Part shown: positions 3,909-60,184 of the stretch, piece by piece
Layout of the letters: the number at the start of each line of letters is the position of its first letter
Position numbering within the stretch: position 1 is the first letter of the stretch
Assembly (NCBI GenBank): GCA_964016885.1
Contig: OZ024740.1
Coordinates: 74,276,001 to 74,340,000 of the forward strand
Source of the DNA: Eledone cirrhosa
Taxonomy: Eukaryota
Direction of reading: 5' to 3'
DNA length: 64,000 nt
Made by a program: the position numbers and the translations under genes
The notes under the pieces: model-generated
The model's input: the letters and a program-made list of their open reading frames with translations, nothing else
Databases searched by the model: none
What the model was told of the DNA's origin: nothing

Positions 3909-6900
3909 AACTTTGAATAACTTTGAAATGTTTTGGCCAGTATTGGCCCAGGCCATGTCTAACTTAATAGCACCACCTGGCGAAGTCTTTCAATTCAGGA
4001 TTTGGGCACCATGGCCCATTCGAGAAGAGAATTACTGTTTGCGGAGACATATCCGGGTGTGGGTGGTTTGTCCGGGATTACTTGGAGGAATTTGTCCAAA
4101 GACTTCTTGAATTTTGTGTGGTCAGTTTCTGTTTTGACGTGTCCTGGTGTGATGTTGAAGAGAGCAGGGCCGATTGAGGTGAAATAATTGTGCCGTATTG
4201 TTGTTATGAGTTGCGATTTAGATTTTTGAATGGGACGGATAGCACGGGGCCCAAGCCTTGGGTGTATCTTGAAGGCGATGCCAACATCATTTGGGCAGTG
4301 ATGATGGAACATTTTCCACATCATGCAGATAATATAACGCTCACGGCGACGTTGGAGTGAGTAAAGTTTCAGGTTTTCCAATCGACCCCAGTAGTCAAGG
4401 TCTGACATGCCATCTATCTTTTTCGTGATTGCCCTTTGAGGAGCTTCAAGTTTCATGATACTTTGTTTCGTGTGGGGAGACCACAGTGGACAACAGTATT
4501 CAAGGTGTGGTCGGGCGAAAGTAGAGAAGAGAAGGATAATGGTGCGGGAATCTCTCGACTGGAAGGTTCTGAGGATCCAGGAACACATTCTGCGGGCCAT
4601 GTCAACTTTGCTGCTTATATGCGTGGTCCAGCTTATGTTGCTGTCCACGGTTACTCCCAAGTCTCTGATGTTGTTAGATGCCACGAGAGTTTCCCCGGAG
4701 GGAAGGGAGTACGGGAGTTTCAGAGCATCCTCTTTTCCAAAGTGGATCAGTTCGAATTTGTCTTCGTTCAGTAACATGTTGTTCTTTTCTGCCCATTGGG
4801 TAACAGCCAGTAGGTCTGACTGAAGGCTTATCCGGTCATCCACGCCATTGATGACCTTTTGGAGCTTGGAATCATCAGCGAAAATTTTAATGTTGCTGTG
4901 TTTGATGATGTCAGTGATGTCATTAATATAGATGATGAAGAGAAGTGGGCCCAACACAGTGCCTTGTGGGACTCCACTACTGACTTTGGCTGGGCTTGAT
5001 TTGACTCCCTCAACTACAACATGTTGGGTTCTGTTTGACAGGAAGCTCTTGATCCACTGCAGCAGCTTTCCAGTGACACCAATATTGGACAGCTTTCTCA
5101 GTAGAATGTTATGATCAACCCTGTCAAAGGCCTTGCTGAAATCAAGGTAGATAACATCAGTGTTGGAACCCTCTCCCAAGGCTCTCAAAATGTCATCAAA
5201 GTGATGCAGTAGTTGCGTCAGGCAATCCCTTCCATTACGGAATCCATGCTGGTTGGAGTTCAGCATATTGTTACTCTCAAGGAAGTGGGTCATTCGCGAT
5301 CTCACCACTCGCTCAAATACCTTAATGATATGAGAGGTGAGTGAGATTGGACGGTAATTCACGGCAAGGGATTTGTTTCCCTTTTTGAAAACTGGGACAA
5401 CAGACTGGGATAGAAGGTTTTCTGGCACATATCCAGCATCCAGTGAGTTCCGCCACAGATTGGCAAGAGGAGAAGCAAGTTGGTGTTGACACGCCTTCAA
5501 GACACAAGCAGGGAACCTATCGGGACCTACTGCTGAATTATGCTTGATTTCCTTTATTGCCGCCAAGACATCAGGGGCGCCAAACGTTATGTCCGATAAG
5601 GTGTAATGGGGAGTAACATCGCCGATACAGCCCAGATCGGCCATATCAGGATTGCTGAAAACAGAGCAGTATTGTTTCTGCAGTATCTCACCCATGGTTT
5701 TAGCATTGTCTTGAAGAGTGCCATTTTCATCAATTAGAGGGCCAACAGTAGAGCCAGTGATTTTGTGTTTTTTTGCAAATGAAAAGAACACTTTGGGATT
5801 GAGTTTGATCTTCTCAATGGCCCAGGCCTCTTCAGCTCTTCTCTGATTGTTGATGAGGGACATTATGTTGTTTTGGAGGTTATGTTTTTTAATCTCTAGT
5901 GATGAAATGGCAGTCAAGTTGATGTGTTGCTGCTGACAGTATTTCAGCTTGTTGATTTTTTTGTTCGTTCTCTTAATTTTTCTGATGAGTGTTTTTCTAT
6001 TTCTAGGGATTCTGCTCTTAGATTTGTTTATAGTTCTTAATGGGGTGTGTTTAGCACATATGTTTGTAACAGTGTCCACAAATGTCTGCCAGGACTTTTT
6101 GATGTTAGTGGGTGTATGAGTGTGCGTGAAGGACCAGTCGACATGTGCAAGATCATGACTGATCGCTTCCCAGTTTGCATTGTGGAAATCCATAGCGTCA
6201 AACGGATGGACAGGAGAAATGACATTGGGTTTGTATATTGGACGGTGGAAACTCAGATCACAGAGAACCATGTCATGATCAGAGAGTAGAGTTTTCTCCA
6301 CTGCAATATTGTGGATATTGTCAGTGTGATTGCTGAAAATTAAGTCTAGGACGTTTTTGTGGCACCTCGTTGGTTCGAGCACTAGTTGGGATAGGAAGAA
6401 ATCATCCATGAAGTCAAGAAGCGATTCCACAGCTTCCCTGTCAGAGGTTGAGGCAGAAGAACCTGGTGGCAGGGTGTTTGTGGACCAGTCAACTCCGGGG
6501 AGGTTGAAGTCCCCCATCATTAAGATGTTGTCAGGGTGACACTCTTGGATGAAACACTTTATGCTGTTGAGGCATTCCTTGAAGCATGGTACAGGCGTTT
6601 GGGGTGGCCTATAGAGCCCAACTACTAATAGGTTGTTGGTTTGACTGAATACAGTGACTGCCTCACAGTATCCATTAGTGAATATGTTCATAGCCTCTGT
6701 TGAGAAAGAATTATGGACATAAATGGCAGTTCCGCCCTTTCTTCTGCCAGCGCGATCAGCACGGATGGCTTTGAAATTTTTCACTTTCACCTCGGCTTCC
6801 AAGTGGAGGTTACTGAGATGGGTTTCAGTGAGGACGAAGAAAGGGATGTGGTTTGGATGGACATCAATCCAGTCCTCCAGGAATTTGATCTTCCATTTTT

Positions 6901-7086
6901 GAGTATTGGTGGAAGGGCTGATGCCTTGGGCGTTAAGCAAAAATGTAGAGGCGAGAGTGGATGGTTTTAATTGTTTTGGTGTGTTGTTAATTTGTTTGTT
7001 TGTTAATGGCAGCAATGGGAGTTTGTGCAGTGGGGTGATAGTGGAGGGTGGTGCTGGGTGATAGCTCGAATGTTTTTTTCCAGTTT
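3909..7086 (-). mobile_element. CR1-group LINE, 5'-truncated, with uninterrupted ORF2
   Basis: Has an APE and an RT domain, a short 3' UTR ending in (ttcaaagtta)x2, and TA tracts on both sides. Confidence 0.93.
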
Positions 7087-7090
7087 CCAT
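3995..7090 (-). CDS. LINE ORF2: apurinic-like endonuclease + reverse transcriptase (1031 aa)
   Basis: APE motifs LTETHL, GLYRPP, MGDFNLP, LDLIF, SDH. RT motifs [42 protein letters not shown]1-type C-terminus [22 protein letters not shown]. The ATG lies at the TA junction and may be adventitious. Confidence 0.9.
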
Positions 7091-7118
7091 ATATATATGT
7101 ATATATATATATATGTAG

Positions 7119-7237
<119 letters not shown>

Positions 7238-7238
7238 G

Positions 7239-7286
<48 letters not shown>

Positions 7287-7299
7287 GTATATATATATG

Positions 7300-7335
<36 letters not shown>

Positions 7336-7629
7336 TATATTTATTCAGGTTTGAGGTTCACCACTGTATAGAGCTGGTCTATTCCGTATGGTCAATCGTA
7401 ATGCAATAATATAGAGAATACTCAACGTAAAGCAGTTCAACCGTCTTTGTTTTTGTAGTTGGTGGTGCTATTACGGAGTTAAATATTATAATGAAATGAC
7501 AGGAGGCTGGATTTGTGTAAATCCTTGAAAGGTTTATTATACTATGATCATTTCAATGACCGGGTTCCGTATGAATCCGGTGATTTCATTATAATATTAT
7601 ATATATATATATGTAGATATATATATATG

Positions 7630-18019: not shown

Positions 18020-18752
18020 ACGAAAATGACCGCCACATAAACTAAAAAAGAGGTATAAGGATTCCTTGAAAGCCTCTTTGAAAGACGCTAACATCTCTGC
18101 TGATACATGGGAAAATGTTGCTGCTGATCGTAATAAATGGAGAAAGACTGTATATGAGGGAAAAGTTGCCTTTGAGGCATCTCGAATCGCATACGAGAAA
18201 GTAAAGCGGGATGTGAGGAAGGGCATTGCTATTGCACTTCCAGACGGTGAAGGTCCTCCTATGGTTCTGACATGCAGCGTCTGTGCGAGACTCTGCCTAA
18301 GCAAAGCTGGACTCGAAAGTCATCTTCGCAGTCATAAAGTAAGACCAGTGGTTGATTACCAAGCTGCTGTTGGAGATGCTACTCATCATGCTTGCCAAAC
18401 ATGTGGTAGAGAATGTAAATCAGCAGGAGGGCACAAACAACATGCACAAGTACACAAACTCCAACCACAGCCGGCTATTCCCAGTGAATGTTTTGGTTGC
18501 CGACTCTGTGCAAGACATTTTAGATCATTAGTTGGACTAAAAAGCCACATTCGATCGCAGCGCTGTTAATTGCTATCGTGTGTGTATAGATATGTTTATG
18601 TGTTTGCGTGTGTGTATATATATGTATATTATTATTGTTGTTGTTGTCGTTATTATTATTGATATGATTATTTTTATTATTATTATTGTTATTATTATGT
18701 TGTTTTTTTTCTCGTGCAATGGCCATACTCGATAACGAGGGGCCAGCCATCA
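18020..18752 (+). mobile_element. RTE-type LINE 3' end (family C) with C-terminal C2H2 zinc fingers
   Basis: KRYKDSLKASLK...WENVAADRNKWRKTV is an RTE C-terminus. It is followed by three C-x2-C-x12-H-x3-H-like motifs, the last degenerate. Confidence 0.8.
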
Positions 18753-30478: not shown

Positions 30479-31573
30479 ACCAGCTAGAAAAATGCGTACA
30501 GCAAAAAAAAGTAATATTGTTGGAATATAAACCTTTAAAAATACAGGACAAGAAACTAAAATAAAACTTTAAAAGAATAGGACAAGAAACTAAGATAAAA
30601 CTTTAAAAGAATAGGACAAGAAACTAAGATAAAACTTTAAAGAATTGGATAAGAAATAAAAAATTTTTCAATAATATTAGTGGCAAAATTTTTATTGGTA
30701 AAAAATCGAGTTCCACATTCATAGGCTCTGGGTTCCACATTCAGAGGTCGTCGTCAGACCGGGGGGATCATTTGATCCTGGTTTGAACACCAATTGGGCC
30801 ATAACCATACCCCTATTTCATCATTCGGCGACACGCGTCATGTGTCATGCATAATGTGAATGGACCCATGGGCCCATGAGCACAGATCTTGAGCAGCAGC
30901 GGACGGTCTTGTTGTCCCGCTCATCCTTGATCTTGACCAACCCGTCCATCTTCCCCTTGCATCTTGTCCTTGAGCTCAAGTCCGGCAGTCCAGATGAATG
31001 TGTGCCACAGCTTTCTGGTACAGGAAGGGGGAGCAGGAGGGCTGGAGGGATGACGGGACAGAGGGAGGGAGGACCGGTGGTTGAGGGAGGTGCCATAGTC
31101 GGTGGTCAGAGTCGATATCTTGTCCCGGTCGTCTTCTCCATCTTCGTCTGGTGTTGCGGGACCAGAAGTGCATTCTTGGAGGAGACCTGCAGCTGCATCG
31201 GCCAATTCTTCTTGCAATGGTCATTCTGACGGAGCAGAACTGCTCAGCCAACCAACCCCAACCAGAACCAACCACTCAGGGGCAACGCACAATGAGAGCA
31301 TGACAATTATTATGCACTAATCAAGAAGATACTGGGGCATAGCACAGGAAACGAATAAAAAAATTTTGCCACTAATATTATTGTAAAATTTTTTATTTCT
31401 TGTCCAATTCTTTAAAGTTCTATCTTAGTTTCTTGTCCTATTCTTTTAAAGTTTTATCTTAGTTTCTTGTCCTATTCTTTTAAAGTTTTATTTTAGTTTC
31501 TTGTCCTGTATTTTTAAAGGTTTATATTCGAACAATATTACTTTTTTTTGCTGTACGCATTTTTCTATCTGGT
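30479..31573. repeat. ~215-bp inverted repeats (30479-30692 / 31357-31573) with internal ~31-bp tandem subrepeats
   Basis: accagctagaaaaatgcgtacagc...gtggcaaaattttt versus aaaaattttgccac...gctgtacgcatttttctatctggt. About 3 copies of aaactttaaaagaataggacaagaaactaagat per arm. Confidence 0.92.
30845..31301 (-). pseudogene. GC-rich coding relic of unknown family inside the inverted repeats
   Basis: ATG at 31301 opens MLSLCVAPEWLVLVGVGWLSSSAPSE*PLQEELADAAAG...WHTFIWTAGLELKDKMQG, with a probable frameshift to KMDGLVKIKDERDNKTVRCC. No family recognised. Confidence 0.35.
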
Positions 31574-31846
31574 CTACTATTTTTTAAGGCAATGCAAGCA
31601 ACAACTATCTAATAATTAAATGATCATAGTGAATTACTGACAAGTGATTGACATTTTAAAGTTCTTTTGAGTATAATTGCAATCTAGTTGAGGCAACTGG
31701 CTTAATGACAAAGCTAGTAAATCATGAATGCATTTGAGATGATTAGTGCATAATAGTGAATTGGTGAAACTTTTGCATTTCAATGGTGTTACAACAATAG
31801 ATGTAAGTTATATAGTAGTAATACTTTATTATTTTAACTTTTTAGA

Positions 31847-32206
31847 ATGGACAAAAACCCATGCAAAGAAATGACTTTGACTGCAGTGATTCTCTCCAAT
31901 TTACTTACAAAGCAAAACGTGGTCAAATACCTTATCATCTCTGATAAAATGCCCATTGAATCACTGAAAATCGGATGCATGGAATTCCTCATAAAATGCA
32001 CCTATGAATCGGAAGCCATCACATATATCAATGGATATAGGGAGTTGTTCACACTGGAAGACCATCACTTCATTTGTGACTTCATCAGTTATCTCCACGA
32101 TTATCTCAGACACCTAATGCCATTGATGAGAGGTGATCAAATGTGTGAGCATGTAACTAATCTTATAGAAGTTGTTATCAACCACCTGGCTTTTAGTGAC
32201 ATTTGA
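31847..32206 (+). CDS. Orphan 119-aa protein, preceded by a 43-nt GT-AG intron (31803-31845)
   Basis: Non-repetitive ORF. The donor gtaagt at 31803 and polypyrimidine ttttag at 31845 lie immediately before the ATG; aataaa follows at ~32283. Confidence 0.5.
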   Translation: MDKNPCKEMTLTAVILSNLLTKQNVVKYLIISDKMPIESLKIGCMEFLIKCTYESEAITYINGYRELFTLEDHHFICDFISYLHDYLRHLMPLMRGDQMCEHVTNLIEVVINHLAFSDI

Positions 32207-32359
32207 CTGATAATGATGTATTTTTAAAAAGTATGTGTACATTCTTGTTACTATTTTAAGGCAATGCAAGCAACAACTATTTAATAAAATTTAAATTTAA
32301 AAATGACCATTGTGCATTACTAGTATGATAACATTTTATTAAGTCAAAAAATTAGTCAG

Positions 32360-33173
32360 TCAGCCATAGAACAAGGACCAGGTGGCAAAAACATTGGCAA
32401 AAATTTGTGTCAATTTAAGATTTCCAACATTGTTCAAATGAATCATATCTGGTTTGAAGTCAGATTTGTCAAATTTTGACCAATTTTCAATGTTGTGAAG
32501 ATTGGGCAAGTTCAATTTTTGAATCATTTCTTTCATGCAGTAATTAAACTTTTCCAAACGAGAATTTCTCTTGCCCAAGTCATTTTTATTTTCAATTACA
32601 CTTTGTAGACGTGGAATGACACCACTGTAGAAAATGGGTGTACAGTGGTGCTTTTCCGCTATTTTCTGTAGCCTTGCAAAGAGACTCTTCTCCTGTTTTT
32701 CCGGTTTTGTGCCTCGAATGGGCACTTTGTCCTTAATTTACAAATAAATGATTAATAAAAAATACTTGGGCAAAAATTATTGTAATACTTTGCACAGCTT
32801 TGTAGTGCCAACGGTGCGACGAGGATTCAGATCATTAGAGCCGACATGAACCACCAATACTTTCACAAAAGGACAACAGATAACAATGTTGGCGATTAAC
32901 ATTACCTGGCCCTGACGGGCCCCAGGTATACAAAATATCTAAGTATTTTTGTTGGTATGATAAGTAAATACATTTGAATTAATATTTTTATACCTTCTGG
33001 TCATTCGATTTCGCCACATTTTTAATTATGGATTTGTAAAAACTGGCATGAATGTGAATTTGATCAGTCCAATTGCCCGATTTTAGTGAAAAGTTTTGAT
33101 TCGAAATGGAAATACTCCATTTCCGTGCCATGGAAAAAATGAATAAGCCGATCAAAAAGCCGCGAAACATCAT
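32360..33173 (-). CDS. Spliced SGNH/GDSL-type esterase (3 predicted exons: 33173-32994, 32938-32789, 32731-32360)
   Basis: Block I-like KSIIKNV, block II IFCIPGAR, block III VLVVHVGSNDL, IFYSGVIPR and block V DMIHLNNVG. Removing phase-0 introns 32993-32939 (55 nt) and 32788-32732 (57 nt) joins them in frame. Confidence 0.72.
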
Positions 33174-34209
33174 TTTTAATTAAGCGAAATTAGTGGATGC
33201 AAATCTCAGAAAATATTGTACACTATTCGCACCTATCGCACTATTCGCACCTATCGGTACAAAAAATCGCACGACTGTTAATAATACTAGAAGTGCAAAC
33301 TATCTGTTGAATACCTGGTATATGAAGAACAACCAATACGATTGGTCGGCGATCGATCTTGAAGAAGAATGAAGAATGAAGTGAAATTTTGGTCTGGTTG
33401 TTGTCATCGGTGTTTCGCAGAGATGCTGGCACGAACAAAGGTGTCAGTGACACAAAGTTGTCCGCTTGAACAAAGGTGTCGGTCCGACAAAGGTGACAGT
33501 CAGACAGACAGTCAGAGAGTGTCACAGTCGGTGCGACAAAGCGATCGATGCGATTAAAAAAAATTTAACTCACATGTTTACCTATATTTTCACAAACTAT
33601 TGATAGATTGGTACAAAAAATAGCTTTGATAATAAACATAAATTTTTAACGAAGTATTTAAAAAGCATTTTAGCAGTGAAAAGTGAAGTAATGTTTCACA
33701 CTGACGTAGTCAATTAGGAGGAGGGGATTCGGCGATTTGACTACATTTGACTAACGTAATCACAATCACAAGAGTTCCGCCGAAAAAAATTCGTCATTTC
33801 TGGATTACCTCCCCTAGCGTCACGCTTACTACTCACTCACTTGAACACAAGATTTATCAGCAAACTTTGATTATAAACTTTTTCCCGCTGGACCAAATTT
33901 CTAGATTTTTAAGCCAAAAGATGTGTAATGATCTACTGTTCATGCTCATATAAGTTTTATCTCAGTTAAATAAAGTAGAGCCGCGCTGTACTGTCATAAA
34001 CAGACGATTGCCAACGAAAACACGACCACAACAATATTACTAAACGGACTACCGTCCGTTTAGGATATATATAATATCAGGTTCAATAAAACGTGGTTTT
34101 GATGACTCCTAACCAGTAGACGATCCGGTGGACCATCCACCATAGGGACCACAAACTATGGGTGTTTGTTGTTGTCCATTGGTACGGGGTGTAGGGGACC
34201 TACAGGGGG

Positions 34210-43769: not shown

Positions 43770-44289
43770 TATAACAATTTGGGCGACAAAATTGTTGGTA
43801 TAGCAGATTTTTTGATACTGTAATATTTGTTTTATGTTAGACATTGTTTAATTCTAGCTTTAGAATGAAATATCTCTAGCATTGAGTTAGTAATTATTGA
43901 AGGATTATTTGTTAATTCATGTGTGACTATGTAAACTTATTTTTATATTGAAATATTGCCGTAATTTTCCACTTAATGGTCAGATAACATGAATTAAATG
44001 TTATAAATTTTAACAGTAAAAAAACATGAAAATAAAACTACTCAATAAAAATAATCCCTGTATATGATAGGCATAAGCATAAATGTGTCCTTAAGAAGTT
44101 TGCTTGACAATCATGTAGTTTTCACTTTTACTAATTAATTAGAAAAGGGGGGATAAGTGCTTAGGCTTGAGTCAACCAATGGAATCTGGGAGGAAGCCGA
44201 ATGTGTGTCTTTATACATACATACATTCATATATAAGGGAAAAAAGAATCAGTGTTGCATCGTATACATATATATACATACATGAAATT

Positions 44290-44348
<59 letters not shown>

Positions 44349-44351
<3 letters not shown>

Positions 44352-45594
44352 ACTCCATTTTATGTCCCAAATGCAAAGTATGGGTGCATAAAAGATGTAG
44401 TGGGATCACAGGTAAGCTAACTAAGAACACAGATTTTACATGTGGCCGGTGCTCTGGTGCAATAAGTAGCAGCAAGTGCCCACTAAATACTAGCTCTTTC
44501 AATTGCGCAGAGGGTTCTATAGAAATAGTGGACAGCTTCCGTTACCTGGGTGATGAAATCAGCAGTGGGGGAGGGTGCTCTGAAAGTACAGTAGCTAGAG
44601 TCAGAACTGGATGGAAAAAGTTCAGAGAGCTTATACCACTATTAGCCGCTAAAGGGTTCTTCCTAAAAATGAAAGGCAGGCTGTATGATGCCTGCATACG
44701 AACAGCAATGTTGCATGGCAGTGAGACCTGGGCATTGTGTGCAGAGGATATACGCAGACTAGAGAGGAACGAAGCTTGCATGCTCTGCTGGATGTGTAAT
44801 AGTAATATACGTGAACGGCAAAGCATAAACGAACTAAGGAAAAAATTAGAAATAAGAGGGATCAGATGTTGTTTACTCGAGAGAAGGCTATGTTGGTATG
44901 GTCACGTGATGCGCATGAAAGACGACAGCTGTATAGCAAAGTGCAGGGCAATAAAGATAGATGGTAGCCACGGAGCAGGCAGACCCAGAAAAACCTGGGA
45001 CGAGCTGATAAATTCCGACCTCACACACTTACACCTCTCCAAGACAATGTCACTGGACCGAGACCTTTGGCGGTACTCAGTAATAGAGAAGACCCGCCTT
45101 ACCTAAATACAAAGTAAAACCTACTACAGCAGCAGGCATCTCTAACAAAATACACCCCCATCCCATCCACACCGCCCCTTTCAATGTAAAGTTATGTTGG
45201 TGCCACAATATCCAGGCCGAAACAAATGAGATCGTGTAGGTGTCACGACAAAAAAACACACAGTCCACGCTGTAATGTGGCCGTGTAGGTAACACGGTAA
45301 AAACCTCCCAGCCCCACACTGTAAATGTGGTTGGTGTTAGGAAGGACATCCAGCTGTAGAAAACCCGCCAGACAGTCCACGCTGTAATGTGGCCATGTAG
45401 GCAACACGGTAAAAACCTCCCAGCCCCACACTGTAAATGTGGTTGGTGTTAGGAAGGGCATCCAACTGTATAAAAGCCGCCAGACAGTCCTATGCGAGCA
45501 AGACAACAACTCTTGCCTCAAGTGGGAAAACTCCCATCCAAACCCATGCAAGCGTGGAACATGGACGTTAAACGATGATGATGATGATGATGAT
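44349..45594 (+). mobile_element. RTE family A 3' fragment including the PHD-like Cys region
   Basis: Open frame RNSILCPKCKVWVHKRC...FTCGRC...FRYLGD...GRPRKTW. The 3' UTR has a duplicated 112-bp unit and a (gat)n tail. Confidence 0.92.
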
Positions 45595-56822: not shown

Positions 56823-59800
56823 TCAGCATGTACCCATGGGAGGTCGGGTACCCTGTATTACTGCGTGACGCCAGAGGTCACGGTCGTGTGTCATTGACTT
56901 TGAGAGGTGTAGTTGGGTAAGGTCGGCTTTTATCACCTCATCCCAAGTCATCTTGGGTCTCCACACTCCGCGGTTTCCATCAACTTCTAGTGCTCTGCAC
57001 CTTTTTATGCAGCTGTCATCCTTCATACGCATCACATGTCCATACCAGCGTAACCGCCTCTCCTGCACGCAGCATTTGATTCCTCTTATGCTCAGTCTCT
57101 CTCTCAATTCCTTTATGCTTTGTCGTTCACGTATATTACTGTTACACATCCATCGGAGCATGCAGGCTTCGTTTCTCTCTAATCTACGTAAGTCTTCCAC
57201 CTTCAGCGCCCAGGTCTCACTACCATGCAACATCGCTGTTCGGATACACGCATTATACAGTCTGCCTTTCATTCTGAGGGAGAAGCCTTTTGCAGCTAGC
57301 AGTGGTAGTAGTTCCCTAAACTTCTTCCATCCCGTTCTTACCCTAGTTATTGTACTTTCTGAGCACCCACCTCCGTTGCTAATTCGGTCACCTAGGTAGC
57401 AGAAGCTGTCTACTGTTTCTACAGGGCCCTCCCAGAGATTGGTGGTACTTGTTTCCTGTGGCTGTTTGCTTGCTGTTTCAGCACAGCTGCTGCATGTGAA
57501 TCCTACATTCTTAATTAAGCTTCCTGAGATCCCGCTACATCTCTTGTGTACCCATTGTTTGCATTTGGGGCAAAGAATGGAGTTCCTACCTACACCTTTC
57601 CTACATACTGAGCAAGGCCATTTCCCTGAGGGGATCTGGGTTCTGTTTTCTCGTCTACTTATAAGGACCTTAGTCTTTGTCATGTTGACTTTGAGGCCCT
57701 TTCTCTCTAGTCCCTGCTTTCAGGTTTGGAATTTATTCTCTAGTTCTACCATAGATTCAGCTATGAGTGCGAGGTCATCAGCATACAGGAGTTCCCATGG
57801 GCATCCGGTCTTAAACTCCTCCGTTATTGCCTGCAGGACTATGATGAACAGAAGAGGGCTAAGAACAGAGCCCTGGTGGACCCCAACCTGTACGCTAAAT
57901 TCCTCGCTATACTCATTGCCAATCCTAACTTTGCTGACTGCTCCCCTATACATGGCTTGTACCGCTTTCACAAGCCATTCATCTACTCCTAGTTTTCTAA
58001 GAGCCCACCAGATTACTGCACGTGGAACTCTGTCAAAGGCTTTCTCAAGGTCGACAAATGCCAAGTAGAGTGGCTTACTTTTAGCTAGGTACTTTTCCTG
58101 TAATTGCCTCACAAGGAAGAGGGCATCAGTGGTGCCTTTCCCTGGTACAAACCCAAATTGCATCTCGTCTATATTCACCCGGTCCCTAATCAGCTGTGCT
58201 ATAACTCTTTCTGTTACTTTCATGACCTGGTCCATCAACTTTATACCTCTATAGTTTCCTCTATCTAGTGCATCGCCTTTACCTTTGTAGCAGTTGACAA
58301 TGATGCTACTGCACCAATCTTTTGGTATGGCCCCCTCTAGTATTACCTGGTTAACGATACGTGTGGTTATAGTGTGACCTACAGACCCAGATGCCTTCAG
58401 CATCTCGGCAGCTATACCCGATGGACCGGTTGCCTTCCCTATCTTCATATCTCTGATTGCCTTACTTACTACGCTGCCGCTGACTTGTACTGCTGGTCCC
58501 TCTATAGGGTCTACGTGGGGTAGGGTCTCTTCTTCCCATGCATTCTCCTCATTTAGTAATCTATCATAATGACTCTTCCATGCATCTTTCTTCTCAGCAC
58601 TTGTGAGGGCAAGCTCACCTTTATCATTCCGGATACACTTCTCTCCAATGACATCACAACTATCTCTGACACACTGCCTCGCAATCTTGAATACCTCCTG
58701 TTTCTGGTCCTCACGTTGTAAAACATGCTTGAATTTTCTATCCTCTGCTTCCCTCCTAGCTAAGTATACTTGTCGCCTAGCTTCCCTCTTGGTCTCTATG
58801 TAATGTACCCTGCTCCCCCCGTTCTTCCATTCTTTCCATGCCTGTCTCTTGGCCTTGACTGCTTCATCTACCTTATTGTTCCACCACCAAGTCACTCTCC
58901 TCCTGCTTGAGGTCTTACTCCAGCCACAAACCTCATCCGTCGCCTCTAGTAAGTTATTTTTTAGGAACTCCCAGTTCTCTTCTACGTTAAATGTCTCTAT
59001 CTGTTCTTCTTTACTGTCGTAGGCGTTGAGTAAAATATCTTTAAATCTGTTACTGGTTGAGGGGACTTTCAGCTTCCAGATCTTTCTTCTCCAGGTTGGC
59101 CTCTGTTTCAGGGCTCGTCTAGTTCTGACCGTGAGGTCGCTGACAACTAAGCTATGTTGGGATGTACATTCCTCACTAGGGAAGGCTTTTGTGTTTACGA
59201 CCGTCCATCTGTCACGTCCTCTGATGAGGATAAAATCTAACTGACTAGAGTGCTCCCCTGATCTATAGGTGATCAGGTGGTTGTCGGGTTTTTTAAAGTT
59301 TGTGTTACATATCGACATGTCATTGGCGTCGCAGAATTCTAGAAGTCTGAATCCTTCCTCATTCCTTGTGCCAACTCCATGGCCTCCATGTACTCTATTG
59401 AAGCCGTCGCAGTGTTTACCTACGTGTCCGTTAAAATCTCCTGCAATGATTAGGAAGTCCTTGTCGTCTGTTAGAGCAGTAGTGTGTATTAGGGACTCAT
59501 AAAACCTATCCTTAAGTTCGTCTGGCAGCCCCGATTGGGGTGCGTAAGCTGATATTATTGTGGTAATTGTCTTATTCAGGACTAGTCTGAGTTTAATGAT
59601 TCTTGCATTTACCCTGTACACTGAGATTACTTTATCTACCCACTTGTCAGCTAATAGTATACCTACACCACCCATCCCATCGTCATTTCGCACCCAGAAA
59701 AATTTGTAGCACTGGCTTTTTCCTACAAGGACTCTAGCAGACCCTCCTCTCCATCTAGTCTCTTGCACACAGCATACATCAACTTCCTTTCGCTCTAGCA

Positions 59801-59942
59801 TTTCTACGATTTCTCCTGCTCTTCCTTTCATTGAGCCTACATTGATGGTACCAACTCGGAGTTTTGGGCATTTGTCGACACTCGTAGGGGAGGGTCTCTG
59901 GGTTGGCGCTTCACGTGGGTGCTTGGTAGCTCGCAGATTCAT
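56823..59942 (-). pseudogene. RTE ORF (APE + RT + PHD-like finger), interrupted by one in-frame TGA at 57720-57722
   Basis: ORFs 57720-59942 and 56823-57683 are in the same frame. Motifs: CVQETRW, AYAPQ, AGDFNGHVG, NYRGIKL, FVDLEKAFDRV, GVHQGSVLSP, LYADD, CSVC..CPKC..WVHKRC..TCSSC and [10 protein letters not shown]. Confidence 0.9.
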
Positions 59943-60184
59943 ATTTCATCTATTGATTCAGAGTTGCTCGTGTATTCCCAGCTCATCCATCCATAACGGT
60001 GGGAAAATTGAGGGCTAGAAGGACAGTGGTGGTGGGGTATGGCAGGGTGTGTTGGGATGCGCCAGAGGAGGAGAGAGTTAGTTAGGCAGGTAGTAGCAGC
60101 AGCAGTGGAAATGGCATGCTAGGTTTGATTGGTCGAATAGACTATGGTGGTGTGTGGGGGTGGGGGGGGAGGGAAATTGTGAGG

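Follow-up and report, generated by a model that had tools for sequence, protein, structure and literature searches.

The window analyzed here is a 64,000-nt stretch of the Eledone cirrhosa genome (GCA_964016885.1, contig OZ024740.1, positions 74,276,001 to 74,340,000 of the forward strand), and it contains, on the minus strand at 32360..33173, a 233-codon reading frame joined across two short introns. The frame lies inside a non-autonomous Helitron-like element, the features of which are collected in Table 1. The frame and intron coordinates of the first-pass annotation, a reading of the sequence alone, proved exact, with pieces of 180, 150 and 372 nt being joined across an intron of 55 nt (GTATAA...ACTTAG) and one of 57 nt (GTATTA...ATTAAG), both in phase 0, and the motifs PGA, HVGSND, YSGVIPR and PDMIH occur in the joined frame as it had described. 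The family stop is a TGA, which ends the frame at 227 codons and is visible in the translation of 18 of 20 other copies, the remaining two being frameshifted. A private TGA to TGG change in the window copy lets the frame read through to 32360 and adds six residues; four sequencing runs read the stop base too.

Table 1. Features of the Helitron-like element in the window, in the 5' to 3' order of the element (coordinates are those of the window).
Feature	Position	Strand	Details
Non-autonomous Helitron-like element (HLE2-type family)	30480..34065	-	3,586 bp; boundaries common to 21 copies
5' end: TC and hairpin	34040..34065	-	hairpin 34063-34040, 10-bp stem, 4-nt loop; fold -10.2 kcal/mol (DNA parameters)
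Left 12-bp subterminal inverted repeat	34029..34040	-	directly after the hairpin
5' non-coding region	33174..34028	-	87-97% identity to parent copy L041
Codons 1-48 of the RepHel transposase frame	33030..33173	-	hydrophobic leader ending YKS; the first frame (323 aa) of parent copy L041 starts with these residues
Deletion junction	33028..33031	-	loss of about 9.1 kb, with 1 base common to both sides; RepHel joined in frame to esterase
End of the third cargo exon of the parent (12 codons)	32994..33029	-	directly after the block I serine
Intron, third of the parent gene	32939..32993	-	55 nt, GT-AG, phase 0; sequence-predicted
Exon with SGNH blocks II and III	32789..32938	-	PGA, HVGSND
Intron, fourth of the parent gene	32732..32788	-	57 nt, GT-AG, phase 0; in-frame stops inside
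Last exon, with SGNH block V	32378..32731	-	DMIH; family stop 32380-32378
Inner arm, an inverted copy of the final 215 bp of the element	31359..31573	+	98% identical to terminal arm
Spacer between the arms	30694..31358		665 bp, 52% GC; longest frame without Pfam match
3' terminal arm	30480..30693	-	right 12-bp subterminal repeat 30522-30511; terminal CTGG

When the 70 GT..AG intervals that are between 40-80 nt long were removed one at a time, the frame did not exceed 113 codons, and two pairs of intervals reached at least 200 codons, namely the pair proposed in the first pass (233) and one that has three of its four sites in common (225). The proposed pair is the best that the 70 candidate introns allow, and the opening of the frame goes beyond chance. 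In a longer parent copy, described below, the GC content of the same two introns is 18-19% as compared to 35-45% in the adjoining exons. The two introns of the window are predicted from their kinship in size and composition, from frame restoration and from motif order. Four sequencing runs, all of a single study and made up of contigs whose kind is not recorded, contained no joints skipping either intron; DNA deletion joints of other derivatives were present in the same runs.

SGNH blocks II (G), III (GxN) and V (DxxH), as defined in PMC4021074, follow one another in the window as PGA, GSND and DMIH. Block I (G-D-S) is absent from the window copy, which reads YKS, and was present in all seven parent exons on DNA alignment. 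The last exon, scanned alone, matched Pfam Lipase_GDSL_3 with E=0.0025 and 18.6 bits, under the curated cut-off of 27, and those of its Atlas neighbours that have a family were GDSL clusters at 0.89-0.91. The motif order, the sub-cut-off Pfam match and the Atlas neighbours point to an SGNH-type product. A single-sequence fold of the last exon alone gave a low-confidence half domain (pLDDT 63) with no PDB match, PDB sequence searches gave no meaningful match, and no homologues of the last exon were found at E<=0.001 among 60 longer candidates. Two matches from a search of 1.84 billion proteins, a Pyrin-repeat protein and a low-complexity repeat, were dismissed as chance. The sole Pfam Lipase_GDSL_2 match in the genome (L104, G000:C18:42.43 Mb) is an intronless, apparently single-copy ORF1-like frame of 466 aa with GCS at block I. 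A pairwise comparison with the one LINE-type ORF1 esterase of the genome scored 3.4 bits, as compared to 5.3 bits for shuffles.

The surrounding sequence is a young dispersed repeat. In the 3.0-Gb genome, all 40 scored matches (of 366 candidates) showed 92-100% identity, and the 20 copies fetched with their flanks had both ends in common with the window copy, with 18 of the 20 reaching the 3' end. The 37-nt 5' end gave 287 exact matches in the genome and its control gave none. The base preceding TCC was A at 47 of 48 5' ends, and the base following CTRR was T at 44 of 45 true 3' ends, a count made from 51 rows listed after six inner arms had been set aside by eye. One sister element has inserted within a parent copy, where the empty site is known, and it is flanked by A and T, the target not being duplicated. 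The inverse of the left 12-bp repeat stands 31 nt ahead of the terminal CTGG, and no strong hairpin forms at the 3' end (-2.7 kcal/mol). In the sister family one pair of the 5' hairpin stem is swapped from G-C to C-G and the hairpin is kept. The 5' non-coding region is likely the transposase promoter and leader.

The inverted arms at the 3' end were a feature of all three Helitron families examined: in each, the terminal 190-215 bp recur in inverted orientation about 0.5-0.7 kb upstream of the 3' end. Identity between arms was 97.7-99.5% within a family and about 91% over 140-158 bp between two close families, and it fell to about 77% over 31-71 bp with the third family; the spacers were unrelated. 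Since the likeness within a family exceeds that between families, the arms are homogenised family by family. A cut-and-paste MITE built of the 215-bp arms was considered and set aside, since the subterminal repeat and the CTRR end of the Helitron itself lie within the arms. A literature search on inverted duplication of Helentron ends, judged by title, gave nothing relevant among the papers listed. In the sister family the spacer (L062:971-1585, +) has a 205-codon frame with a Cys/His pattern and no matching Pfam domain, which by eye we take to be like the PHD finger and coiled coil of a LINE ORF1, and this spacer is possibly DNA captured between the arms.

The window element is an internal-deletion derivative of a RepHel element of about 13 kb. 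In the parent copy (L041+L042), the 5' end and the opening frame are as in the window, but the YKS is followed by KKRNYP... into a frameshifted RepHel with DUF6570 (E=1.9e-14), Helitron_like_N (7.7e-24), PIF1 and a C-terminal UCH protease domain, and the 5' end is located 10.5 kb from the esterase exon. A stretch homologous to codons 1-48 also occurs in the 1,904-aa RepHel frame of the sister family. The genome has about 25 copies of Rep with 90-100% identity, and among the matches listed none has a complete open frame. The cargo gene of the parent is a separate gene downstream of the RepHel stop, and its exon reads YIVGDSIIRNV, with a true block I; this GDS exon was found in seven copies, RepHel sequence being present ahead of it in four of them. 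Comparison of parent and window base by base placed the serine codon of the transposase before the IIRNV of the esterase, and the serine at the nucleophile position of the fusion comes from the transposase side. The 33-nt sequence spanning this junction has 90 exact copies in the genome (control 0) and was recovered within three edits in 39 of 43 further copies.

These results change the reading of the N-terminal part of the frame. The first pass had read YKS as possibly a one-nucleotide lesion of FTDS in a copy that may be decaying and the hydrophobic N-terminus as a part of the esterase; the former is a 9.1-kb deletion junction carried by many exact copies, and with the latter the RepHel reading frame of the Helitron begins. 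Given that both leader and YKS are the transposase's own, a point lesion is not needed. The check that it proposed, on whether block I in other copies is GDS or TDS, gave GDS in the undeleted relatives.

The internal deletion joined the first 48 RepHel codons to the last two-and-a-bit exons of the cargo gene. In the mechanism that we propose, the RepHel of an intact family member would then copy the shortened element in trans by rolling circle, a step suggested by the retention of both ends and drawn from Helitron biology as given in PMC11417382 and PMC5148889. The fusion would lose the esterase activity, and it is likely inactive because the parent strand and the Gly-Asp before the serine (YIVGDS) have been replaced by ASFYKS from the transposase. 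We consider it very probable that the frame is a chimera of this origin, made of the RepHel start and the end of a NADAR-SGNH cargo gene, likely copied in trans and likely an inactive passenger.

Several features of the RepHel elements are recorded here as side observations. Helitrons of these families insert into one another, and second 5' ends occur in several parent copies (L087-L089 at G000:C28:136.46 Mb; L093; L073). The hydrophobic leader is present twice in the RepHel of the sister family. About 80 residues into the RepHel frame (L041:1395-1455; L061 RepHel N-terminus) there is a hydrophobic stretch ending in GCVELNPGP, which presumably resembles 2A-like ribosome-skipping motifs; a search for literature linking such motifs to Helitrons found none.

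In the parent, the cargo gene has five small exons, and a NADAR domain is encoded by three exons upstream of block I. The four GT-AG introns of the model are 55, 217, 54 and 57 nt long, with a GC content of 18-29% as compared to 34-45% in the exons; the longer second intron (213-217 nt; L081:1187-1403) has internally repeated A/T-run sequence and is perhaps a small insertion. With a YbiA-like profile made from E. coli YbiA and 120 relatives (121 domains), the spliced model scored 48.4 bits (positions 13-152 of 153), as compared to 15.3 for the highest-scoring unspliced frame and 2.1 for the top one of 200 shuffles, and the spliced alignment showed no gap at either NADAR exon junction. The three NADAR exons match one PHROG in order (12-64, 79-112, 125-161). 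These matches are the strongest argument for the reality of the small introns of the cargo gene. Pfam NADAR matched exon 1 with E=0.0018 and exon 2 with E=0.067, or 30.7 bits against a cut-off of 35.1 when read through an intron, and its matches in the genome were confined to two of these Helitron copies. No homologues of NADAR exon 1 were found among three candidates, the Atlas was blank for parent exon 3, and among the 236 longer YbiA relatives the 120 that were listed all lacked a GDSL Pfam domain. The four-intron model is stop-free in one of seven parent copies, and the rest are interrupted by frameshifts, deletions or an insertion; in none of the seven is the cargo gene fully intact, the open one having NxxH in place of DxxH.

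On alignment to YbiA (E48, K55, E125), the parent NADAR retains the catalytic Glu, the Lys at the seventh position after it and the Glu of the last strand, residues named in PMC11543638 and shared with the guanine-ADP-ribose hydrolases of the YbiA/NADAR group (PMC11543638 and PMC11125620). In contrast to these hydrolases, the parent lacks Asp130, which is invariant in 121 of 121 YbiA-like sequences, as well as the Gly78-Arg79 pair, and the window copy lacks the NADAR domain altogether. We infer that the parent product would be a two-domain enzyme, with a putative YbiA-type N-glycosidase or ADP-ribose eraser ahead of the esterase, presumably made from a spliced transcript of its own downstream of RepHel. 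YbiA-family domains in mobile elements are also described in PMC12477816, where NADAR occurs in an Ectocarpus Gypsy Pol and a Crassostrea Tx1 ORF1; those domains are intronless and lie inside a retroelement Pol or ORF1, whereas the one modelled here belongs to a separate spliced gene of a DNA element and is fused to SGNH. No description of a NADAR-SGNH cargo in a Helitron was found in the open-access literature, though Repbase or subscription papers may hold one, and the terms NADAR, GDSL and SGNH are absent from one supplementary file of PMC11417382.

We also compared the cargo among families. In the sister family (90% Rep identity) the 2.2-kb cassette is cleanly absent, and the third family (66% Rep identity) gave no match to the esterase exons. 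This distribution, seen in three families compared as sequences with no tree, favours a gain of the cassette by the parent family after its split from the sister rather than a loss. An exon-wise genome search, which has low power for spliced genes, found no host source gene for the cargo. An imperfect direct repeat of 95 bp (76% identity; a 34-bp core at 97%) occurs at 32338-32249 and 31658-31575 of the window, that is, after the esterase gene and before the inner arm. Its second copy is the edge of the cassette missing from the sister family, and for this reason the cargo may have arrived by recombination with another Helitron.

The first-pass view that an intron-bearing SGNH-type esterase here travels with a DNA element rather than with a LINE was upheld by the Helitron ends and the RepHel-bearing parent with no RT. 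Neither an intronless ORF adjoining an RT nor an APE-RT ORF2 was found in the element or its parent, and the introns are present in the parent. Ngaro/DIRS, Penelope/Terminon and LINE carriers were likewise dismissed, the frames of the parent having no RT or recombinase. Motif spacing in the frame does resemble that of the ORF1-type esterase L104, as would be expected if it were a plain LINE ORF1 esterase whose indels look like introns, but element and parent offer RepHel and no RT, and of the four AT-rich GT-AG gaps in the parent gene two bring back a NADAR alignment free of gaps, so that we hold this explanation to be very improbable. A LINE ORF1 may be a distant ancestor of the cargo, with the introns gained later.

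The nearest known counterpart is texim/teximY, a multi-intron SGNH hydrolase gene related to CR1 esterases that travels with a fish Helitron according to Tomaszkiewicz et al. (2014; PMC4021074). Both are SGNH genes with introns that accompany a Helitron and no RT. In that account texim is located upstream of the coding region of the Helitron, comprises up to 15 exons and is expressed in the testis, whereas the cargo here, which is likened to texim by description, lies downstream of RepHel and has five small exons and an N-terminal NADAR; the window copy differs further in being a truncated fusion.

The element does not fall neatly into a described class of Helitron-like elements. It resembles HLE2-reverse, FoHeli3-5 and proto-Helentron elements, as described in PMC11417382 and PMC5148889, in DUF6570 (an HLE2 marker domain in PMC11417382), in UCH and in 12-bp subterminal inverted repeats, HLE2 repeats being short (12-16 nt). 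The resemblance extends to the HLE2-reverse layout, with a 5' stem-loop ahead of the left repeat and no 3' hairpin (-10.2 kcal/mol at the 5' end here versus -2.7 at the 3' end), and to non-autonomous deletion derivatives. An HUH Rep and a PIF1 helicase are joined in the RepHel of the frameshifted autonomous partner; the window element itself has no RepHel. In contrast to those elements, UCH here lies within the RepHel frame and the three families have the 190-215-bp inverted copy of the 3' end. The same papers give T^T as the HLE2 target, TGCCT and CTCCTGT as the start and end of FoHeli3-5, and ascribe TC...CTRR ends in A^T to HLE1. Insertion here is into A^T, and the 5' TC, the 3' CTRR and the target without duplication are HLE1-like, but the hairpin that HLE1 has 10-12 nt ahead of CTRR is absent. 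Nor is the element a strict Helentron, the RepHel frames of all three families having UCH and no Exo_endo_phos (APE) domain. We therefore call it HLE2-type rather than a plain member of HLE2 or of HLE1, given its A^T target and HLE1-type TC...CTRR ends.

We then asked how the fused frame has changed among its copies. In the first 21 copies, omega was 0.49 raw and 0.62 after mutation-spectrum correction (p=0.04), which would have suggested purifying selection. This signal was gone in the 39 junction-bearing copies (of 43 examined), where omega was 1.05 overall and 0.88 on exons unused for ranking, with 44 synonymous changes versus 49 expected, 147 non-synonymous versus 157 expected and 10 stops versus 10 expected; 16 of the 39 were fully open. 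The early low value is explained by ascertainment bias, since the ranking exon gave 0.41 in top-ranked copies and 2.19 in low-ranked ones. The change among copies is neutral, and the distance from the majority was about 0.5-1.2% in 19 of 21 copies; the frame is open in the window because the copies are young, not because it is functional. These values describe private changes of dead copies, which cannot reveal selection on a master copy.

These counts bear on whether the fusion might be expressed from the transposase promoter, as a membrane-targeted esterase or pseudo-enzyme that helps the derivative to out-copy its parent (90 versus 7 copies). Such a product would fit the frame kept across the deletion, the serine thereby set precisely where the nucleophile belongs, the intact state of blocks II, III and V in the family majority, and the omega of the first 21 copies; against this, one deletion in three is in frame by chance, the low omega did not persist in the larger set, and derivatives that delete the esterase are numerous as well, most of the fetched 5'-end sites without a listed full last exon being 1.5-2.4-kb deletions. 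Sequencing depth was lower over the esterase than over the shared ends. We regard an expressed and useful fusion as improbable, and the argument against it is one of weakening, because master-copy selection would be invisible in the changes counted. A domesticated host esterase, which the first pass had offered beside capture by a DNA element, could account for canonical introns and an open frame, but it is extremely improbable for a sequence that has at least 90 near-identical dispersed copies within element ends, that changes neutrally and that in the window copy has a private stop read-through; of the two options, carriage by a DNA element stood, on the Helitron ends, and domestication did not.

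The neighbourhood contains further mobile-element sequence. Two bases past the element's 3' end lies a 5' fragment of the third-family Helitron (30477-28382, minus strand; about 1.9 kb, 78-100% identity in pieces), a family whose 5' hairpin is long (-22 kcal/mol) and which has several intact 2,230-aa RepHel-UCH frames in the genome. The 5' flank has a decayed frame at 34640-34200 (minus strand), which to the eye looks like the GIY-YIG endonuclease end of a Penelope element. Two APE-RT LINEs, two PHD-finger frames and one C2H2 zinc-finger frame were noted at 3995-7357, 56823-59945, 44237-45106 and 18030-18569, and very long AT microsatellites surround these other mobile-element frames of the window.

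A bolder picture of the parent can be drawn, in which an HLE2 transposon with HLE1-like ends would use a working spliced NADAR-SGNH enzyme as a counter-defence that strips ADP-ribose from guanine on rolling-circle ssDNA, the host would defend itself by DNA ADP-ribosylation, and the homogenised 200-bp inverted 3' copy would serve a fold-back step of replication; we put this forward as an unlikely conjecture. Returning to the chimera, the window copy is a dead fragment, and its value is that of a countable case in which a Helitron deletion fused the start of the transposase to the cargo and was then amplified. Intron-containing SGNH genes in Helitrons are already known from fish, as texim, and the association recurs here in another lineage, with the parent adding an apparently undescribed Helitron cargo, NADAR plus SGNH with introns. 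The end structure mixes the rules of HLE1 and HLE2, and annotation based on structure would mis-sort such elements. If the NADAR half should be active on ADP-ribosylated DNA, a role of DNA ADP-ribosylation in transposon control would become testable.
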